Assembly (NCBI GenBank): GCA_963829055.1
Contig: CAWHHI010000020.1
Span: 1 to 64,000 of the forward strand
Direction: 5' to 3'
From: an uncultured Gemmatimonadaceae bacterium
GTDB taxonomy: Bacteria; Gemmatimonadota; Gemmatimonadetes; Gemmatimonadales; Gemmatimonadaceae
DNA length: 64,000 bases
Made by a program: the position numbers and the translations under genes. This document shows positions 26,811 through 35,547 of this stretch, piece by piece. The notes under the pieces were generated by a model. That model did no database searches. It was given only the letters and a program-made list of their open reading frames with translations, and was not told the DNA's origin. Positions within the stretch are counted from its first letter, which is position 1. Each line of letters begins with the position of its first letter.

Positions 26811-27953
26811 ATGCGCGCTCTCACCGTCCTCACTGCCCTTCTGCTCGCCGCCCCTGCCACCGCGTCGGCGCAGGGCGCGGTCCTCGTATACCGGCTCGGC
26901 AAGGACACGCTCGCCGTCGAGCAGTACACGCGCACCCCCACCGGTATGTCGGGCGAGATGGTGCAGCGCAACGGACCGGCCGTCGTGCGCTTCACGTACT
27001 CGCTCACGCTTGGCAAGGACGGGCGCCCAACGGCGGCCAGCCTCACACGCATGCTCGGTGACGGAACGGCACAGCCGGGGGCGCCTCGCGAAGTGCGCTA
27101 CTCGTTAGGACCCGACTCGGCAGTCCGCGAAGTCGTCTTCGCCGACAGCACGCAGCGTCGCGCCGTCGCCGCTTCCCGGGCGATGGTGAACTTCCCCGTC
27201 TTCATCTACGGCCCCACGGAGCTCCTCGCCGCGCTGCGCAAAGGGAACGCCGCCGACTCGCTCCCGGCGATCGGCCAGGCCGGCGGGCTCGGCTTCACCG
27301 GTCTTTCGGCGTTAGGCGGCGACTCGGTGCGACTCCGCGGAGGGCCGTATGCGATGGTCCTGCGCTTCGACGCCGCCAACCGGCTGCAATCACTGGACGG
27401 TCGTGGGACGACGAACAAGGTCGTGGGCGAACGGGCGTCGGGCCGCGTGGACATCGCCGCGCTCGCCCGCGGGATGAAGCCGACCGGTGTCCTCTCTGCG
27501 CGCGAGGACGCGCGTGCCGCGTTCGGCCCCGGCGGGATGGTCGTGGTCGATTACGGCCGGCCGCAGGTGCGCGAACGCACGGTGTGGGGCGGGACGCTCG
27601 TCCCGTTCGATTCCGTCTGGCGCGCCGGCGCGAACGATGCCACGCACCTCTTCACGACGCGTCCGCTCACACTTGGCACGATGAATCTGGCGCCGGGGAT
27701 GTACACGCTCTGGGTGCAGCACACGCGTCAGGCGACGTTCCTGATCGTGAACCGTCAGACCGGCCAGTGGGGGACGCAGTACGACGCGACGCAGGACGTG
27801 GGACGCGTCGAGATGCAGTCGGCACCGGCGCCGTCGCACGTGGAGGAGATGACGATCGCCGTGCGCGCACTCGGACCCACGCGCGGCGCAATCGAGCTGG
27901 CGTGGGGTGACCGCGTCATGACCGCGCCGTTCGGGGTCGGGACCAGGCCGTAG
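26811..27953 (+). CDS. Secreted protein with C-terminal DUF2911 domain
   Basis: Signal peptide; VDYGRPQVRER..LVPFDSVWRAGANDAT..PGMYTLW..QTGQWGT. Confidence 0.85.
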   Translation: MRALTVLTALLLAAPATASAQGAVLVYRLGKDTLAVEQYTRTPTGMSGEMVQRNGPAVVRFTYSLTLGKDGRPTAASLTRMLGDGTAQPGAPREVRYSLGPDSAVREVVFADSTQRRAVAASRAMVNFPVFIYGPTELLAALRKGNAADSLPAIGQAGGLGFTGLSALGGDSVRLRGGPYAMVLRFDAANRLQSLDGRGTTNKVVGERASGRVDIAALARGMKPTGVLSAREDARAAFGPGGMVVVDYGRPQVRERTVWGGTLVPFDSVWRAGANDATHLFTTRPLTLGTMNLAPGMYTLWVQHTRQATFLIVNRQTGQWGTQYDATQDVGRVEMQSAPAPSHVEEMTIAVRALGPTRGAIELAWGDRVMTAPFGVGTRP

Positions 27954-27984
27954 CGCCCCGCGTATCGCGCGCCATATTCGCTAC

Positions 27985-30321
27985 GTGTCCATACGATACG
28001 AGCTGAGTCACGACGCGATCGCGCGCCTCGTGTTCGATCAGGCGTCGGCCGAGGCGCAGACACGGCGCAAGATCGAGAAGTACGTCCGCGATCGTCTCGC
28101 GATGCACCGCGAGCGGGGCCCACTGCTCACGCAGGATGACCTCGACTACATCCATCCGCACCTCGGCGCGATTCACGCGGACGCGGAGGAGCGTGCGTTC
28201 ATTCGCGAGAGTACGCGCGCGGTGCAACGGACGCGAAACCGACGGCGGTTGCTCGTCACGGGTGTGATCGCGGTGCTCGCGGTGTCGAGCGGTGTGAGCG
28301 CAGTGTTGGCCGTGAAGGCAACGCGGTCGACGCAGCTCGCGAACCGCGAGCGCGACCGGGCAGAGGCCGCGCGCCTCTTCAACGAAGCGCGGACGCAGCT
28401 CGCCAGCGGTTCGCTGCTCGACGCCGTGAAGACGGCTCGCGTCAGCGCACGCACGTACCCGACCGATCCGTCGTCGACCGAGACGCAGTACGCGGTGATG
28501 GCGGATCCAACGTCCGTGCTGGTGACGATCCGCGAGCCCTTGAACTCGAGCCCGCAGGTCCGCTTCTCGGCGGACGGTAGCCGCATCCTCAGTGTCTCGA
28601 AGAACGCCTTCGGCAGCTTCGCGGCTCGCATCTGGGATTGGAATCGCACGGAGCTGTTCTCGATTCCGCAAACCATCCGGGCCGACTATGCGAAGCGGTC
28701 GACAGCACTGATCGCGGCGGAACCTGGGGCCCCGGCATTGACCGCGAATGACGACGGGTCCAGCTGCGGGAACGAAATCAGGCTCGACGATCAGACGTTA
28801 GGCGGTGTCGGCACGTTGTTCGTCGTCGACCTCGCAGAGCCGGCGAAACGCGAGAGCCTCCCTTTTGGCTTTCAGTCGATGGCGCCTAACGGCACGCGCG
28901 TGTCCGTGTGCGGGAACACCGTCTCGATCGACGACGACAGCGGGAAGAGTCTCAAGGCTCTGAGCATCCCCGGCGCGAGAGCGGCGGCGTTCACGCCGGA
29001 CGGAACGCGGATCGTCGTGTCGACCAATTCACGCAGTGCCATCTACGACCTGACCGGGGAGAAGCTGCTCGACGTCGACGGGGCATCACTCACGGTATCC
29101 GACGATGGAGAGCGGCTCGCCACCGTCGAGGGTGCGACGACGATCATCCGCGATGCGACGGGACGCGAGCTCGCCCGACGGCAAGGTGTGGCGCCCGTGT
29201 TCGGACCGAACGGCATCGTGCTGACGGTGGTGGGCGAGACGAGCCGGCTACGGCGGCCTGACGCCGACGGGACCACTGCGATGGTCAACTATCCGGGCAC
29301 CGATCCGCGCCTGTCACCCGATGGGAAATGGGTGATGACCACGATGACGGACCGCACGCGAATCGCGGACGTGGCGGGCCACGAGCTCACGACGCTCCCC
29401 GGCGTGTCGGGACGCTTCTCGCCCATCGCGCCCGTGGCGATGACGGCGACGGAGAGCGGCGTGATCAGGTTGTGGGATCTGCGGCGGACTCCCGTCGCGA
29501 CCGAGGAGGCAGCGGCCGGCATCTGGGGACTCGACGAGCAGTCCGTGAAATCGTTGGCAGCGCTCAACGGCCCGACCGACTGTCGGTTCAGGTGCGTGTC
29601 TCCAGACAGCTCGTTGCGCGCATCAGTGATCGCGGCTCCTCTCGTCACACCCGGCGCACGCTCAAGTGCGAGCCTGATGCTCGAAGCCCGTGATCCCGGC
29701 GGCGCCGCCGCCGACGAGCAGGGATGGCGGGCACTGCCAGGGGGCGAAAAGCGCGGGTGCCCGACACCCGTTGCCATGGACATTTCGCCCGTGGCCGGCG
29801 GCGACATCGTGCTCGGGTGCGGCGACGGACCCGTCCGCGTGTTCGACCGCACCGGCGCGGTGCGCTGGGAAGGAAAACACGCCGGCGCCGTTACGCGCGC
29901 GGCATTCTCGCCAGACGGCCGGTACGTGTTGACGGGATCGGCCGACCGTACCGCACGCCTGTGGAACGCGGCGACCGGCGCCGTGATCACGACGTTCGCC
30001 GGCCACGAAGGCGACGTCACGGCGGTGATCGTGTCGAGAGACGCGACGCGAGCCGCGACGCTCACGACGCGGGGCACGCTGCGACTGTGGCAGCCTAACG
30101 CGCCGAGTGCGACGCTGCTCTCCAGCGTCACGCTCGATGACTGGATGATCACGGCCATCGCGTTCAGCGCCGATGGGTCACAGATCCTGGCGCGCACGCT
30201 GCGCGGCCAACTTCGCCGCTGGCTCACGGACGCCACCCAGCTCGACAAGGAGTTCGCGTGGGTACGCACTCGGCCCGACACGACGACGGCGCCTAACGCC
30301 AGCGCGGGCTCCCGCCCATGA
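27985..30321 (+). CDS. Membrane-anchored WD40-repeat protein beginning with a STAND winged-helix tail
   Basis: N-terminal YELSHDAIAR, one TM helix (LLVTGVIAVLAVSSGVSAVLAV) and WD40 blades (AFSPDGRYVLTGSADRTARLWN, GHEGDV). Confidence 0.85.
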   Translation: MSIRYELSHDAIARLVFDQASAEAQTRRKIEKYVRDRLAMHRERGPLLTQDDLDYIHPHLGAIHADAEERAFIRESTRAVQRTRNRRRLLVTGVIAVLAVSSGVSAVLAVKATRSTQLANRERDRAEAARLFNEARTQLASGSLLDAVKTARVSARTYPTDPSSTETQYAVMADPTSVLVTIREPLNSSPQVRFSADGSRILSVSKNAFGSFAARIWDWNRTELFSIPQTIRADYAKRSTALIAAEPGAPALTANDDGSSCGNEIRLDDQTLGGVGTLFVVDLAEPAKRESLPFGFQSMAPNGTRVSVCGNTVSIDDDSGKSLKALSIPGARAAAFTPDGTRIVVSTNSRSAIYDLTGEKLLDVDGASLTVSDDGERLATVEGATTIIRDATGRELARRQGVAPVFGPNGIVLTVVGETSRLRRPDADGTTAMVNYPGTDPRLSPDGKWVMTTMTDRTRIADVAGHELTTLPGVSGRFSPIAPVAMTATESGVIRLWDLRRTPVATEEAAAGIWGLDEQSVKSLAALNGPTDCRFRCVSPDSSLRASVIAAPLVTPGARSSASLMLEARDPGGAAADEQGWRALPGGEKRGCPTPVAMDISPVAGGDIVLGCGDGPVRVFDRTGAVRWEGKHAGAVTRAAFSPDGRYVLTGSADRTARLWNAATGAVITTFAGHEGDVTAVIVSRDATRAATLTTRGTLRLWQPNAPSATLLSSVTLDDWMITAIAFSADGSQILARTLRGQLRRWLTDATQLDKEFAWVRTRPDTTTAPNASAGSRP

Positions 30322-32222
30322 CGACGCCCGTTCTCTTCCTCGCGTTCGCGAACGACGACTCCGCTCATCTGCAGCTGCTCAAGACCGAGAGCTCCGAAAT
30401 CTGGCGCAGGCTGGCGGACATCGACCGGCAGGAGTTCGTGAAGGTGCATCGTGAGGAGAGCGCGAGCGTCGACGAGCTGTTCGAGGCGCTCGTCCGCTTC
30501 AAGGACCGCGTCGCGATCTTCCATTACGGCGGACACGCCGACGGAACGATGCTCCAGCTCGAAGGCGGAGCCGGACACGCCAACGGGATTGCCGGACTCC
30601 TCGGCGAGCAGGCGAACCTCAAGCTCGTCTTCCTCAACGGCTGCGCCACTCGGCCGCAGGTCGAACAGCTGCTCGCCGCCGGCGTCAAGGCGGTCATCGC
30701 CACGTCGGTCCCGATTCGCGACGACAAGGCCACCGCGTTCTCTGTCCGATTCTACGAGGCACTCGCCAACCGACGCACCATCGCTCAGGCGTTCGCGCTC
30801 GCCCAGCACTACCTCCAGACCCGCTTCGGCGACGTCCGCGATGTCAGCATCGTCCCAATGCGCGACATCCGCGCGAAACATTCCGTCGACGCGGGCGAGC
30901 GCATTCCCTGGGGGCTCTACATCAAGGAGGAGTGCCAGCGCGAAGTGCTCGACTGGACGCTCCCCTACTATCACGCGATCGGGCTCCCGCAGGAGATGAT
31001 CCAGTACATCGGGAGCAGCTTCAGCGCGAACCGCTACATCATGCTGGTGCTCGATGAGATGGCCCGCTACAACCCGGACATCTACTCGCAGATGACGGAG
31101 CAGCGGGGCGGCGAGACGGTGCGGCGTGACTCGCGCGAGTACCCCGAGCTCATCGTGCGGAATCTCCCGTGGCCGTTAGGCTCGCAGATCCGCCTTCTCC
31201 GCCTGCACGACGCACCGGACATGGAGCGGCTCGAGCTGCTCGTGAGCGCCTACGTGCGCACGACGCAGCTGCTGTACTTCATTCTCCTCTCCGATCTCTG
31301 GGAGCAGCGGCGACACGGAACGATCGACGTTCCGGCCACGTTCGATGCCGCGCTCCCGGCAGGTGCCAGCGCATTCTCTTCGTTCGACTTCCTCGCGCGG
31401 ACGATCGAGCTATACCGGCTCTTCACCGCACAGGCGGCGCACCCCTACGTCGCCGAATTCGAGCGAGTGGCGGAGATGTGGGACGCGACGCCGTCGCCCC
31501 TGCAGAGCGCGCACACATACCTCGAGCAACTTCGCGCCGAGTTGCTAGCGGGGACGCCGATCGCCGAGCTCGCCCAGCGATGCCTAACGACCGAGCAGGC
31601 GCTGTCGGTCGTCCTCCGTTCAGCGGCATTCCTCGCGCGCTACCGGATGATGACGGTGCGGAACATCACGGTGGAGGCCCCGCGCTTCGAGACGGTGTCG
31701 TACGAGCTGGACATGGGGCCGCTCAACGCCGTCGACAACAGCGCGCTCAACCTGTATCAGGATGCGGCGCGCCGCCGGAAGGCGCATTACGGCAACAGCC
31801 AGTCGATCGTGCTGGTACGGGACGAGAACGCGCTCGACGACTGCCTCAACCTCTCGCCCTTCATCGTCGACAAGAACACGTTCGTCAGCGTCAAGAAGAG
31901 CGAGACGACGGACAAGGACCGGCTCGCGCACATCTTCGTCCTCTCGTACGTGGAAGACGGACGCCTCGTCTACCTCGCGGTCGACCATGGTCTCCGCTAC
32001 GCGCTCGACAACGCGCGCGACCGCATCCACACGGATATGACGCGCGAGGACTTCACGGAGGGACGCAACCTCGCCCCGAGCATCCCCGCCGCTGATCCGT
32101 TCGGCGTCGGCGCGACGTTCGGCTTCGAGCCGCAGCCTGCCGCTGACGACGGCGTGAAGGTCTTCCAGGTGCTGCGCAATCAGCTCGAGGGATTCATGGC
32201 TGACGTCGGGATACCGCGATGA
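30318..32222 (+). CDS. CHAT (caspase-like) domain protein
   Basis: LFLAFAND, IFHYGGHA (catalytic His), LVFLNGC (catalytic Cys) and AFSVRFYEAL. ATGA overlap with the upstream gene. Confidence 0.88.
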   Translation: MTTPVLFLAFANDDSAHLQLLKTESSEIWRRLADIDRQEFVKVHREESASVDELFEALVRFKDRVAIFHYGGHADGTMLQLEGGAGHANGIAGLLGEQANLKLVFLNGCATRPQVEQLLAAGVKAVIATSVPIRDDKATAFSVRFYEALANRRTIAQAFALAQHYLQTRFGDVRDVSIVPMRDIRAKHSVDAGERIPWGLYIKEECQREVLDWTLPYYHAIGLPQEMIQYIGSSFSANRYIMLVLDEMARYNPDIYSQMTEQRGGETVRRDSREYPELIVRNLPWPLGSQIRLLRLHDAPDMERLELLVSAYVRTTQLLYFILLSDLWEQRRHGTIDVPATFDAALPAGASAFSSFDFLARTIELYRLFTAQAAHPYVAEFERVAEMWDATPSPLQSAHTYLEQLRAELLAGTPIAELAQRCLTTEQALSVVLRSAAFLARYRMMTVRNITVEAPRFETVSYELDMGPLNAVDNSALNLYQDAARRRKAHYGNSQSIVLVRDENALDDCLNLSPFIVDKNTFVSVKKSETTDKDRLAHIFVLSYVEDGRLVYLAVDHGLRYALDNARDRIHTDMTREDFTEGRNLAPSIPAADPFGVGATFGFEPQPAADDGVKVFQVLRNQLEGFMADVGIPR

Positions 32223-33298
32223 CGGTGGCGACCACGAGCCCGTTCAAATATCTGGACGCGTACCAGAAGGAGGACGCGGACCGTTTCTTCGGGCGCGAGC
32301 GCGAGACGGCGCAGCTCTACAACGTGGTGCACGCCTCCAACCTGGTCCTCATCTACGGCGCCTCCGGCACCGGCAAGTCGAGCCTCGTCAACTGCGGACT
32401 CGGCAACCAGTTCGTCGACACGGACTGGCTGCCGCTATTCGTTAGGCGCGGCACGGATCTCAACCGGTCGCTGGAACGCACCATGGCCGGCGCGATGAAG
32501 GGAGACGCGCCACCGGATGACGTGGCCGTCGGCGAGCGTCTGCGGGCGCTGTATCTCGAGCACTACCGCCCGATCTACCTGATCTTCGACCAGTTCGAGG
32601 AGCTCTTCATCCTCGGGACCCGCGACGAGCAGCGGCTGTTCTACGAGACGGTTCGGCAACTCCTCGACGCGAGCGCGGGATGCAAGCTGCTCATCATCAT
32701 CAGAGAGGAGTACATCGCCTATCTCTCGGACTTCGAGAAGGCGGTGCCCTCCCTCTTCGACAACCGGCTCCGCATCGAGAAGCTCAACGATGCCAATCTC
32801 GCCCGGATCATTGTCGGGACGGCGCACGCGGCCGGTATTCGGGTAGACCAGCCTAACGTCACCGTGCCGGCGATCCTGGAGAACATCCGTGATCGCCGCA
32901 CGGGCGTCGATCTCGCCAATCTCCAGATCTACCTCGACCGACTCTGGCGCGCCGATCTCGAGCGGCAGGGCACCGCGACGCCGGCCGTGGTGACGTTCGA
33001 TCCTGCACTCACCGAACGAGTGGGCAAGTTGAGCGACGTGCTGCGCGACTTTCTCTCCAATCAGCTCAAGGCAATCGAGCAGGGCCTCACGTCGCAGCGA
33101 GGTGTCGCGAAGCCCGAGGGCATTCCGCTGGAGGTCCTGTTCGCGCTGGTGACCGAGGAGGGTACGAAGCGGAACCTCGACGTGTCAGCGATCCTCGAGG
33201 CGCTTCCCGGGAACCGCGAGATCCAGGAGTCGCACGTGCGATTCTGCCTCGACGAGTTCGAGCGCCTGCGGCTCGTGCGTCCGCTCGCCGTCGCGTGA
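32219..33298 (+). CDS. nSTAND1-type STAND P-loop NTPase (no C-terminal sensor)
   Basis: SPFKYLDAY..DADRFFGRERE, Walker A GASGTGKSS, Walker B LIFDQFEELF, IREEY and LVTEEGTK. ATGA overlap. Confidence 0.9.
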   Translation: MTVATTSPFKYLDAYQKEDADRFFGRERETAQLYNVVHASNLVLIYGASGTGKSSLVNCGLGNQFVDTDWLPLFVRRGTDLNRSLERTMAGAMKGDAPPDDVAVGERLRALYLEHYRPIYLIFDQFEELFILGTRDEQRLFYETVRQLLDASAGCKLLIIIREEYIAYLSDFEKAVPSLFDNRLRIEKLNDANLARIIVGTAHAAGIRVDQPNVTVPAILENIRDRRTGVDLANLQIYLDRLWRADLERQGTATPAVVTFDPALTERVGKLSDVLRDFLSNQLKAIEQGLTSQRGVAKPEGIPLEVLFALVTEEGTKRNLDVSAILEALPGNREIQESHVRFCLDEFERLRLVRPLAVA

Positions 33299-33321
33299 CG
33301 CTGACCCGCCAGTGGAACGAG

Positions 33322-33457
33322 GTTGAGATGTTGATGGCAGGCGAGGCAGGCCCTATAGCCAGAATTGGCAAAGGGCAGACTTCCCTGACAGGTGAGAGGC
33401 GGAGCGCGTTTGCCAGTTCTGGCTCTGGGCCGGAATCGCCCACCATCAACATTTAAC
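33322..33457. other. Long imperfect hairpin downstream of the STAND operon
   Basis: GTTGAGATGTTGATGG/CCATCAACATTTAAC outer arms and AGCCAGAATTGGCAAA/TTTGCCAGTTCTGGCT inner arms. Confidence 0.75.
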
Positions 33458-33475
33458 GCGCAGTCCACCTCACGC

Positions 33476-33505
33476 TTGACATGTGACCTTTTGGTCACCT
33501 ATTAT
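33476..33505 (+). promoter_or_regulatory. Sigma70 promoter with overlapping ArsR operator
   Basis: TTGACA (33476-81), 18-bp spacer, TATTAT (33500-05); palindrome GTGACC-TTTT-GGTCAC at 33483-33498; GTG start 5 nt after the -10 box. Confidence 0.75.
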
Positions 33506-33510
33506 CCGGT

Positions 33511-33834
33511 GTGACAGACGACGATCGCGTGTTCAAGGCGCTCGCTGATTCGACGCGGCGCTCCCTCCTCGACCGGCTCTTCGTGCGTGACGGCCGCACG
33601 CTCACGGAGCTCGAGTCCGAGCTGGCGATGACCCGCTTCGGTGTCATGAAGCACCTCCGCGTCCTCGAGGACGCGGGGCTCGTGGTGACCAAGCGCTCGG
33701 GACGCGAGAAGCTGCACTTCCTCAACCCCGTTCCGATCCGGCTCATCCACGATCGATGGATCGACAAGTTCACCGAGCGCCGCGTATCGGCGCTCACTGA
33801 CCTCAAGCGACAATTGGAGGAGGAGTCCGCATGA
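33511..33834 (+). CDS. ArsR/SmtB-family regulator
   Basis: VFKALADSTRRSLLDRL and MTRFGVMKHLRVLEDAGLV..RSGREKLHFLNPVPI. Confidence 0.93.
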   Translation: MTDDDRVFKALADSTRRSLLDRLFVRDGRTLTELESELAMTRFGVMKHLRVLEDAGLVVTKRSGREKLHFLNPVPIRLIHDRWIDKFTERRVSALTDLKRQLEEESA

Positions 33835-34353
33835 CGAGCACCGCACCGTCCGGCACGAGCGTCACGACGCAGATCTATCGCGTCTTCATCAAGGCAACGC
33901 CGCAGGCGATCTGGGACGCGATCACCACGCCGGAGTGGACGCAGCGCTTCGGCTACGGGTTGCGCGACGTGTACGAGTTGCGTCCCGGCGGGTCGTACCG
34001 CGGGTACGCGAACGCAGGGATGACCGCCATGGGGATGCCGGAAGTTGTCGACGGACGGCGAGGTCATAGAGGCGGATCCGCCGCGGAAGCTGGTGGTCAC
34101 CTGGCGCATGGCGATGGACCCCAGCATGGCCGCCGAAGGCCATACGCGCCTAACGTATGAGATCGTGGAGGGGAGGAACGGTGTGAGCCGCCTCAGCGTG
34201 ATCCACGATCTCACGGGAACGCCCGGCCATGCGGCGATGGTCGCCGGCGATCAGCAGGGCCCCGGAGCCGGCGGTGGCTGGACCTGGATCCTGAGCGATC
34301 TCAAGACGCTGCTCGAGAGCGGAACGCAGATGGTAACGGGCGGCGCGTGGTAG
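33831..34353 (+). CDS. SRPBCC/AHSA1-domain protein; frameshift near 34045
   Basis: IKATPQAIWDAITTPEWT, GEVIEADPPRKLV and GGGWTWILSDLKTLLE. Typical ArsR partner. Confidence 0.88.
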
Positions 34354-34642
34354 TGAATGGAAGTGAAAAGGCCTCGCGCATTCGCGCGAGGCCCGGAGCC
34401 AATCTCGCTCGCGCGACGCGCGCCGACTAGTCGTGTGAGCCAGGCCTCGCCGGGTCGGTACCGCGAACGAACCGGATGATCTGCACCGGCCGCTTTCGGC
34501 GCGCGACGTCCTCGTACAACACGAGGAACTGGTCACCGGTCGTCCGGCTCACCGCGTACACCTTCACGAAGGCGCGCCCGCCGACGGAGCTCGATGTAGT
34601 TTCGCCGCCGGATACTTCGGCGAATGTGGTGGCCGGGGCCGT

Positions 34643-34698: not shown

Positions 34699-35385
34699 TT
34701 ACAACGAGGGCGACAACCCTTTCGTCGCCGGGTCGGTGTGCCGCGCTAGCAGTGTCGTGATCTCGTCACGGAACCGCTTGCTGCCAAGCGCCCAACCCGT
34801 GTGGGTCGCGTTGCGAATGTCCGCGAGCACCGAATCGGGAAGCGCGGCCCGAAAGAGCGCGCGGTATGCCGCCTGACGCGTGCATGCGTCGCGGTCGAGC
34901 GCCAGATACCGCTCGTGGGGCGTCACCAGCGGATCGCTTGCGCCGAGGGCGTTCGCTCCGTGGCTCGACCACGGGTAGTGACGCGGGTCGGTGACGAGCC
35001 CGGCGCGCACCGGATTGAGCTCGATGTACCGATGGCACGCGAAGAGATACTGATCGGTGTCCACGACAGTGGCCTTGTAGCGTCCCTGGCACAAGGTGCC
35101 AGTGCGTTCATACGTGTCGTTGAAACGCCTAACGTATCGTCGGCAGACCGATTGCAGCATCCGTCCGATGCCGGAGGCGGTCGTCGGCGTCAGGAGAAGG
35201 TGCACGTGGTTGGTCATGAGCACGTATGCGTGCACGTGACAGCCGTACTTTTCGCACGCGGTGCGGAGACAGTCGAGGAAGAACCGATAGTCCGAATCCG
35301 CGACGAAGAGCACCGAGCGATTCGTGCCGCGCTGGATGACGTGCTGTGGCATGCCAGGAGCGGCGTAGCGTGGTATGCGTGCCAA
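34699..35385 (-). mobile_element. REP-associated tyrosine transposase (RAYT / TnpA-REP, Y1 HUH family)
   Basis: ARIPR..PGMPQHVIQRGTNR, HAYVLMTNHVHLL (HUH), RYIELNPVRAGL (catalytic Tyr) and YPWSS. Probable TTG start at 35385. Flanked by REPs. Confidence 0.92.
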
Positions 35386-35547
35386 ACTCACCTCGTGGAG
35401 CGCGTGGTTGGTCGCGACACGTGTGCGGCCGCGGCCGACCTACATGGTGGCACGCACAACGCGCCCGGGCGCCATCAACCTGTCGCTGGCTGGGACCGTT
35501 CCAACGCGGACTGATCACCGTTGTAGATGTGCCGCACCGATGGCCGC

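Follow-up and report, generated by a model that had tools for sequence, protein, structure and literature searches.

A three-gene locus encodes a receptor, a CHAT protease and a truncated NTPase

The window analysed here is a 64,000-nucleotide stretch of DNA from an uncultured Gemmatimonadaceae bacterium, and within it we examined a three-gene locus for a putative split STAND (NLR-like) system. Three open reading frames on the + strand are joined by ATGA overlaps at 30318 and 32219. The first (27985–30321, GTG start) encodes a 778-residue receptor matched by Pfam WD40 (E 1.4e-19). The second (30318–32222) encodes a 634-residue CHAT protein (PF12770, E 2.4e-10, 40.8 bits against a cut-off of 24), in which residues 1 to about 216 make up a caspase-like protease and about 400 further residues a helical and beta module without a Pfam family. 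The third (32219–33298) encodes a truncated, 359-residue nucleoside triphosphatase (NTPase) of the nSTAND1 family (PF20703, E 3.3e-37, 129.5 bits against a cut-off of 27.1, model positions 1–242 of 379). An earlier note, made from the letters of the window, had described these genes, overlaps and motifs and proposed profile searches for nSTAND1, CHAT and WD40; open reading frame calls, motif positions and Pfam all agree with it.

The NTPase comprises Walker A and B, REE and RLR motifs, a helical domain and a winged helix. The Walker A motif (GASGTGKSS at residue 47), the DxxEE-type Walker B (DQFEE at 124) and the downstream arginine motifs are intact. The winged helix ends past its first wing strand, at ..FERLRLVRPLAVA-stop, and more in-frame stops follow directly. 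The rest of the winged helix, the arm and the sensor are encoded by gene 1, which sets the NTPase outside the single-chain definition of STAND and NLR proteins.

The receptor begins xSIRYELSHD. Residues 3–10 correspond to the last wing strand and an H-D motif, and a helical arm extends to about residue 88. A basic patch, a single hydrophobic membrane helix (about residues 90–110) and a divergent WD40 propeller region follow. The exact start codon of gene 1 is uncertain, because no Shine-Dalgarno sequence was seen ahead of the GTG and the receptor starts of close relatives fall 0–7 codons from the usual methionine of the family. The closest named relatives are from Gemmatimonadota, and the G+C content of the locus (0.645–0.68) resembles that of the genome (0.65–0.675).

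The NTPase is cut in the turn of the wing hairpin

To place the cut, we compared 155 loci: 79 from genomes, fetched with a CHAT alignment, and 76 from metagenomes, fetched with an NTPase alignment. Adjacency to CHAT is a matter of construction in the former; the independent metagenome set finds it in five of five split loci, and a contig end cuts two. The double-NTPase loci L047–L051 and L053, locus L068 and the cut or broken frames of L103, L105 and L112 were left out of the receptor set, and NTPases cut at contig ends were left out of the tree. A split NTPase of about 355 residues is present in 50 of the 155 loci, in both Bacteroidota and Gemmatimonadota, and always stops a few residues past a strand of the R-(I/L)-L-R type. 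Short length is also the norm among the best NTPase homologues listed in a search limited to proteins of at most 629 residues, where 118 of 120 have 350–384 residues. Walker A, Walker B and REE are retained in 50 of 51 split NTPases.

Fused relatives continue from the R-(I/L)-L-R strand through a short turn into E-L-x-H-D. In hhalign comparisons the split NTPase covers positions 1–346 of the fused profile and the receptor positions 348–435 (probabilities 100 and 99.6), with neither gap nor overlap. The AlphaFold2 model of a natural fused relative (mean predicted local distance difference test score, pLDDT, 94.6) has a helix at 326–338, a strand at 342–344, a turn and a second strand at 350–352; H354-D355 follow this strand and lead into the helical arm. 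E351, H354 and D355 show no variation across the 60 fused rows. Profile tiling and the modelled fold together place the cut in the turn between the two strands of the wing hairpin, in line with the earlier proposal of an NLR-like protein cut inside its winged helix. The cut shifts the invariant H-D motif, probably the counterpart of the MHD-type nucleotide lock, onto the receptor.

A separate receptor gene starting with the motif lies upstream of the NTPase in 11 of the 50 split loci and downstream in 26, with none in the fetched flank of the other 13; several loci hold two or three. The sensor-first order emphasized in the earlier note is correct for the window but is not the general rule, as sensor-last loci are commoner. 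Counting the window, 35 of 46 receptor frames at these loci start exactly with M-x-x-E, 34 of the 35 by ATG.

The split is neither an assembly artefact nor likely to be undone by rejoining

An independent metagenome contig (L081) is 98% identical to the locus over 8.7 kb and has the identical gene order. Contigs from public runs bridge the joint between the upstream gene and gene 1, the junctions at 30318 and 32219, and the NTPase stop, although no single piece covers the whole stretch. The independent contig and the bridged gene junctions exclude misassembly, and the opposite of what the earlier note gave as grounds for doubt (homologues always fused, reads misassembled) is found: the homologues are split in 50 of 155 loci and the joints are bridged. 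That the locus is a misassembly or a decaying pseudogene is scarcely credible. The assembly is 86% complete and the start context of gene 1 is weak, which would suit such an explanation, but the catalytic motifs are intact and a cut conserved across two phyla refutes it. The split noted earlier is thus real and no sequencing artefact.

The halves might also be rejoined into an ordinary single chain at the DNA, RNA or protein level, by circularisation, back-splicing, trans-splicing or read-through. A circularised sensor-first locus would indeed yield a fused gene, and in a few cases a downstream receptor follows the NTPase stop in frame and almost without spacing (0, 3 and 9 nt). Against this, 19 of 25 downstream gaps shorter than 400 nt are out of frame, with gaps ranging from -4 to 334 nt; receptors have a conserved start codon of their own; and orphan receptors lie up to 3.9 Mb away. 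No intein-like termini were seen. The repeats listed for 27000–34500 are at chance level and none pairs the locus ends, Rfam has no match at the locus, and no joint between the NTPase end and the gene 1 start is among those listed for four public runs, whose contigs drop rare forms. Rejoining is therefore highly improbable.

The two halves are predicted to complete one winged helix

We modelled the complex of the window NTPase with receptor residues 1–90, together with three controls. The pair scores 0.62 and the best of the three controls 0.00, against a mark attained by 116 of 157 solved complexes and, among mismatched pairs, by 2 of 215, counts that are only rough since our own alignments were used. 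The runs share at least 80% of contacts, with a partner pLDDT of at least 79. Receptor residues 2–17 are placed on NTPase residues 304–325 and 351–358, as the fused chain predicts, with Y5-L7 touching 319–322 and 352–355. The strand and first helix that form this plug (residues 1–17, 27985–28035) are likewise predicted to insert into the NTPase winged helix from the model of the fused relative. The complex model is support rather than proof, because the halves of a split gene tend to pass by likeness to a single-chain fold. With the profile alignment it nonetheless makes binding of the halves very likely, and both the docking and the reassembly in trans suggested in the earlier note fit these results.

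Receptors share a conserved plug and carry diverse sensors

The receptors follow a common plan: an M-x-x-E-L-x-H-D start leads into a helical arm and a single membrane helix, and a variable domain such as WD40 or FGE lectin comes last. Among 1.84 billion cluster representatives, the profile search returned 1,429 matches at E 0.001, of which we inspected the best 150. The motif falls within the first 25 residues in 147 of these 50%-identity clusters, as M-x-x-E in 128, and H-D is kept in 146 of the 147. A hydrophobic helix at positions 70–140 is present in 136 of the 144 members that are long enough. The survey for short nSTAND1 genes and YEL[SA]HD-type starts that the earlier note called for has thus returned both, as a family of split loci and a family of receptors.

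Our own screen finds WD40-like domains in 78 of the best 150. Among 62 other receptors scanned, 15 carry FGE, 5 carboxypeptidase-regulatory-like and 3 WD40 domains, one each a caspase, an Lcl_C and a peptidoglycan-binding domain, and 36 are without assignment, some of these domains being under the Pfam cut-off. One locus receptor has an OmpA domain. Between the window receptor and four Gemmatimonadota relatives, the plug (N-terminal 85 residues) is 73–76% identical and the sensor region 25–27%; the NTPase is 75–77% identical in the three relatives that have one, and the CHAT domain 73–74%. In these comparisons the plug is as conserved as the NTPase, while the sensors diverge. The earlier suggestion of swappable sensors accords with the variety of C-terminal domains and with the orphan receptors described below.

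By the positive-inside rule, the side of a membrane helix that bears a basic patch is cytoplasmic. The patch precedes the helix, so the plug would lie in the cytoplasm and the variable domain probably faces the periplasm.

In four Gemmatimonadota loci (L002 389–922, L005 3269–3769, L019 3919–4419 and L003 4791–5318), a gene lying directly before that of the receptor encodes a small acidic protein with a hydrophobic N-terminus; tblastn found no match to it in the window genome. Tandem, apparently secreted paralogues lie between receptor genes in L009 (3209–7876) and L011 (3647–4954) and are possible periplasmic partners. In L039 (11142–17809) and L226 (6047–10906), tandem short receptors are followed by a large gene, with a caspase in L039 and a similar-looking protein in L226; such tandem receptors adjoin the core in one genome and lie 57 kb away in the other.

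Orphan receptors, distribution and history

We searched ten whole genomes, picked for holding the split system. Four of the ten contain orphan receptors, with no NTPase or CHAT homologue in the 12–20 kb of surrounding sequence fetched; two orphans are near contig ends, and their downstream side is poorly covered. Three of the searched genomes have three receptors per split NTPase. In G001, a single chromosome record of 8.87 Mb, one split NTPase has two adjacent receptors and a third lies 3.9 Mb away. G003 carries a single NTPase of the family overall and three receptors, all on other contigs, G406 has two extra receptors 57 kb from its split NTPase, and G410 has one orphan on another contig. 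With the plug at a free N-terminus, a single core could serve several receptors, and we think it likely that it does.

In a tree of 141 rows, all 51 split rows group with 4 fused ones on a single branch (SH-aLRT 99) that lies within the fused proteins, and the seven Gemmatimonadota-type rows, among them the window, fall inside Bacteroidota. In a second tree the long-branch row L099 leaves the split branch, and the sensor-first order is limited to one 16-row subclade. These trees fit best with one main origin of the cut followed by relocation of the receptor gene, extra origins or re-fusions being less favoured alternatives, and transfer from Bacteroidota is suggested. Within the phylum, the split system was found in 2 of 401 genomes searched.

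The CHAT protein pairs a caspase fold with a putative docking module

Residues 1–216 of the CHAT protein form a caspase domain whose closest fold is SAVED-CHAT (8tl0; Z 21.6, root-mean-square deviation (rmsd) 2.3, 189 residues aligned). The motifs HYGGH at 69 and LNGC at 106 supply the catalytic pair, H73 and C109, which is invariant in 51 CHAT sequences and bears out the earlier report of an intact dyad. Both motifs are present in 49 of 49 full-length CHAT proteins directly upstream of split NTPases, the window included.

The C-terminal region, described in the earlier note as about 400 unrecognised residues, has no Pfam family and no Pfam or Protein Data Bank (PDB) sequence match, but it does recur as a module next to nSTAND1 genes. 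Fused nSTAND1 genes, too, have it encoded just upstream, where it stands by itself or follows EAD11, a weak TIR match or a different N-terminus, and this recurring position suggests that it is a docking module. It was folded only within the whole protein, where the caspase domain filled the fold searches, and the results give no evidence of a new fold. The helical part (residues about 235–441, 31020–31640) aligns weakly with the Roquin N-terminus 4txa (Z 9.1, below the level that the tool rates as meaningful for helical bundles; rmsd 3.0, 131 aligned), which we take to contain HEPN domains. In 25 relatives of the module without CHAT there is a motif RN(E/D)(I/V)GH, presumably akin to the HEPN RNase motif (RNxxxH or RxxxxH). 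The window protein has PSPLQSAH at that place and lacks the R-N of RNxxxH. From the fold match and the position of the motif, the helical part is possibly HEPN-derived, a lead and not a result.

Upstream of fused nSTAND1 genes (L088, L094–L096, L108, L110, L111 and others) we also observed a stand-alone protein of about 345 residues without a Pfam family, in which RN(E/D)(I/V)GH is strictly conserved; it is a candidate HEPN-like RNase effector. The nearest ESM Atlas clusters are unnamed, and an EAD11-bearing cluster at 0.80–0.81 is a lead only.

A proposed mechanism based on strand complementation across two proteins

We consider it probable, at somewhat lower confidence than binding of the halves, that the locus encodes a three-protein STAND system that is re-formed by strand complementation, senses outside the cytoplasm and activates a caspase-like protease. 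Sequence comparison shows that an ancestral single-chain gene for nSTAND1, arm, membrane helix and sensor was cut in the wing hairpin turn and that the cut was kept across a wide clade. In the modelled complex, the N-terminal strand of the receptor would slot into the soluble NTPase and complete the winged helix at the inner face of the membrane. From the topology, the periplasmic variable domain may bind a ligand or sense the state of the envelope. By analogy with MalT, Apaf-1 and plant NLRs, the receptor would use its H-D motif and arm to hold the NTPase closed on ADP, and a ligand or clustering of receptors would open it for ATP exchange and oligomerisation. Judging from the gene order, the CHAT protein may dock on the NTPase through its C-terminal module, in which case clustering could turn the protease on. 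Most likely, the output would be growth arrest or death, as a conflict response to an invader or an attack on the envelope.

In a more specific form, to which we give slightly less than even credence, the receptors would act as plug-in cartridges. Each membrane receptor would donate the last strand of the winged helix and an MHD-type lock to one NLR core, and joining a domain to the end of a plug of about 90 residues would let new sensors arise anywhere in the genome. All would feed one cytoplasmic NTPase–caspase platform, giving a receptor–adaptor–protease network like animal death-receptor signalling that works by fold complementation and senses the periplasm.

The same parts could work by release. 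The receptor plug and H-D motif would then keep the NTPase off, and loss, cleavage or turnover of the receptor would free it to oligomerise and fire the protease, in the manner of an antitoxin. The H-D motif does sit on the receptor, plant NLRs need MHD for ADP binding and respond to its mutation with effector-independent death (PMC8813719), and arm–NOD contacts stabilise the closed form of MalT (PMC4381067). Yet several receptors per core would buffer the loss of one, a winged helix without its core strand may be unstable rather than active, and fused relatives share the same parts and cannot act by release. We regard release as decidedly unlikely and prefer activation through the receptor.

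Whether the output is defence or death is an evenly balanced question. A conflict role is favoured by the patchy spread, the fast-diverging sensors, the FGE sensors and the extra caspase, CHAT and TIR genes nearby. The PADLOC check proposed in the earlier note was run and returned no system-level match: for the window proteins, PADLOC 2023 gave short P-loop or weak matches (best E 2.2e-5 over 34 residues), which argues against classical anti-phage defence. NCBIfam gave nothing above cut-off. Alternatively, the same split switch could serve ordinary envelope or developmental signalling, with the protease processing a regulator upon periplasmic or cell-contact cues. OmpA, carboxypeptidase-regulatory-like and peptidoglycan-binding sensor domains would suit this, as would neighbouring genes for amidases, OmpA and LysM/SPOR proteins, and defence and non-defence STAND clades are interspersed (PMC13581612). 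The spread and divergence cited above speak against it, as do the additional caspase, CHAT and TIR genes, the EAD11, weak TIR match or RNxxxH motif in the effector slot of relatives, and the FGE lectins, which have been proposed as invader sensors (PMC8195603). We judge an envelope or developmental role somewhat unlikely.

Several observations weigh against the mechanism that we favour or narrow it. The H-D motif is equated with MHD because of its position in the winged helix and not by residue-level superposition. In a fold search with the fused model, ORC/Cdc6 and archaeal ATPases of AAA+–winged-helix type are closest, and MalT (8bob; residues 13–429, Z 14.6, rmsd 8.1, 337 aligned) and NRC2 (residues 18–374, Z 13.9) rank lower; sequence searches of the PDB returned no nSTAND1 relative with a solved structure (best E 0.038). 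Part of the complex score is homology stated again, as split-gene halves tend to pass, and the model covers the pair from the window rather than cross-binding of orphans or contact between CHAT protein and NTPase. Sharing of a core is not universal, because the remaining six of the ten genomes pair receptors with split NTPases one to one; in the window genome itself, a single receptor and a single split NTPase are accompanied by one distant single-chain paralogue. Four fused rows fall among the split ones and L099 shifts between trees, so that a single origin is unproven. The 67 hand-picked neighbours (of 130 listed) form no defence island, their PADLOC matches being mostly generic caspase/CHAT, ATPase and helicase domains, and several are envelope proteins. 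The probably periplasmic sensors also count against classical anti-phage defence.

Relation to known systems

The nSTAND1 family was defined, and fused forms with upstream effector genes tabulated, by Kaur et al. (2021, PMC8195603). The conflict systems described there include two-gene 'TIR+DrHyd -> nSTAND1+TM+BetaPropeller' operons and a single-chain 'CASPASE+nSTAND1+BetaPropeller'. They share with the window system the NTPase family, a membrane helix with beta-propeller or FGE sensors, and an effector on a separate upstream gene. Unlike most of the rows covered, which are a small part of 1,355 nSTAND1 mentions and in which NTPase and sensor form a single chain, the window system has separate genes, a fixed cut and receptors in trans. 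In a few cyanobacterial rows a bare nSTAND1 precedes a beta-propeller gene, in one case with an intervening PSE element.

Avs and other bacterial NLR receptors (Lee et al. 2026, PMC13581612), and Apaf-1-like WD40 STANDs with an N-terminal caspase, resemble the window system in the STAND switch, the repeat or lectin sensor, the caspase-like effector and, likely, activation by oligomerisation. As presented there, they are single chains with C-terminal sensors and intracellular targets, whereas the window sensor is separate and probably periplasmic. The split form would not enter the sensor set of that study, because only C-terminal regions of at least 400 residues on the NTPase chain were clustered. 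In the two-gene EACC1 caspase system (Kaur et al. 2020, PMC7159879), a membrane protein has been put forward as the activator of a caspase encoded by another gene, as in the scheme proposed here. EACC1 is described as a constant small membrane protein with the variable part on the caspase, whereas the window receptor is variable and would complete the NTPase fold. Plant NLRs carry MHD in their winged helix (PMC8813719).

MalT and the plant NLR ZAR1 share the layout of nucleotide-binding domain, helical domain, winged helix and arm, and the H-D with which the winged helix ends is similar to MHD. In MalT and ZAR1 the lock and arm belong to the same chain as the NTPase; in the window system they are on another protein. 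SAVED-CHAT, the closest solved fold for the protease domain, is activated by assembly, a plausible parallel. Unlike it, the window CHAT protein has no SAVED domain by Pfam and has a STAND NTPase as its partner.

No description of a conserved wing split or a stand-alone receptor family was found in the literature searched, although supplementary tables could hold such rows. The split system is apparently undescribed, an NLR-like variant among nSTAND1 conflict systems that departs from the single-chain plan. STAND and NLR switches are described as single chains whose sensor restrains its own NTPase, and a natural cut makes activation directly testable by adding or withholding the lock. With the split, a single effector core could read many different sensors. 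The arrangement also points towards signalling across the membrane by NLRs of bacteria, and its plug, short and naturally occurring, could be used in engineering receptors. Studies that draw their sensors from the NTPase chain would overlook these receptors, a family with at least 147 50%-identity clusters among the best 150 matches.

Related loci and flanking features

A distant CHAT–nSTAND1–membrane helix–WD40 paralogue is present in the window genome (L001 5500–10144; G000:C11 about 140500–145140, - strand). Its CHAT part and the remainder are in different overlapping frames, which may reflect a frameshift, a broken gene or an assembly error, and a caspase-like gene lies nearby. A second type of split occurs in L047–L051, L053, L068 and L093, where the NTPase is fused to a second, truncated NTPase. 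Except in L093, the next gene seen encodes about 100 extra residues, then a degenerate plug motif and WD40 repeats.

The promoter scan found none ahead of gene 1, and the sole strong site belongs to the next gene. The system ends at this near-consensus sigma-70 promoter (11/12; 33476–33505), which precedes an ArsR-type regulator at 33511. A palindromic intergenic repeat at 33300–33470 has more than 20 partial copies genome-wide and is a possible REP-type element; the open reading frame at 34699–35391 presumably encodes a protein resembling a REP-associated transposase.

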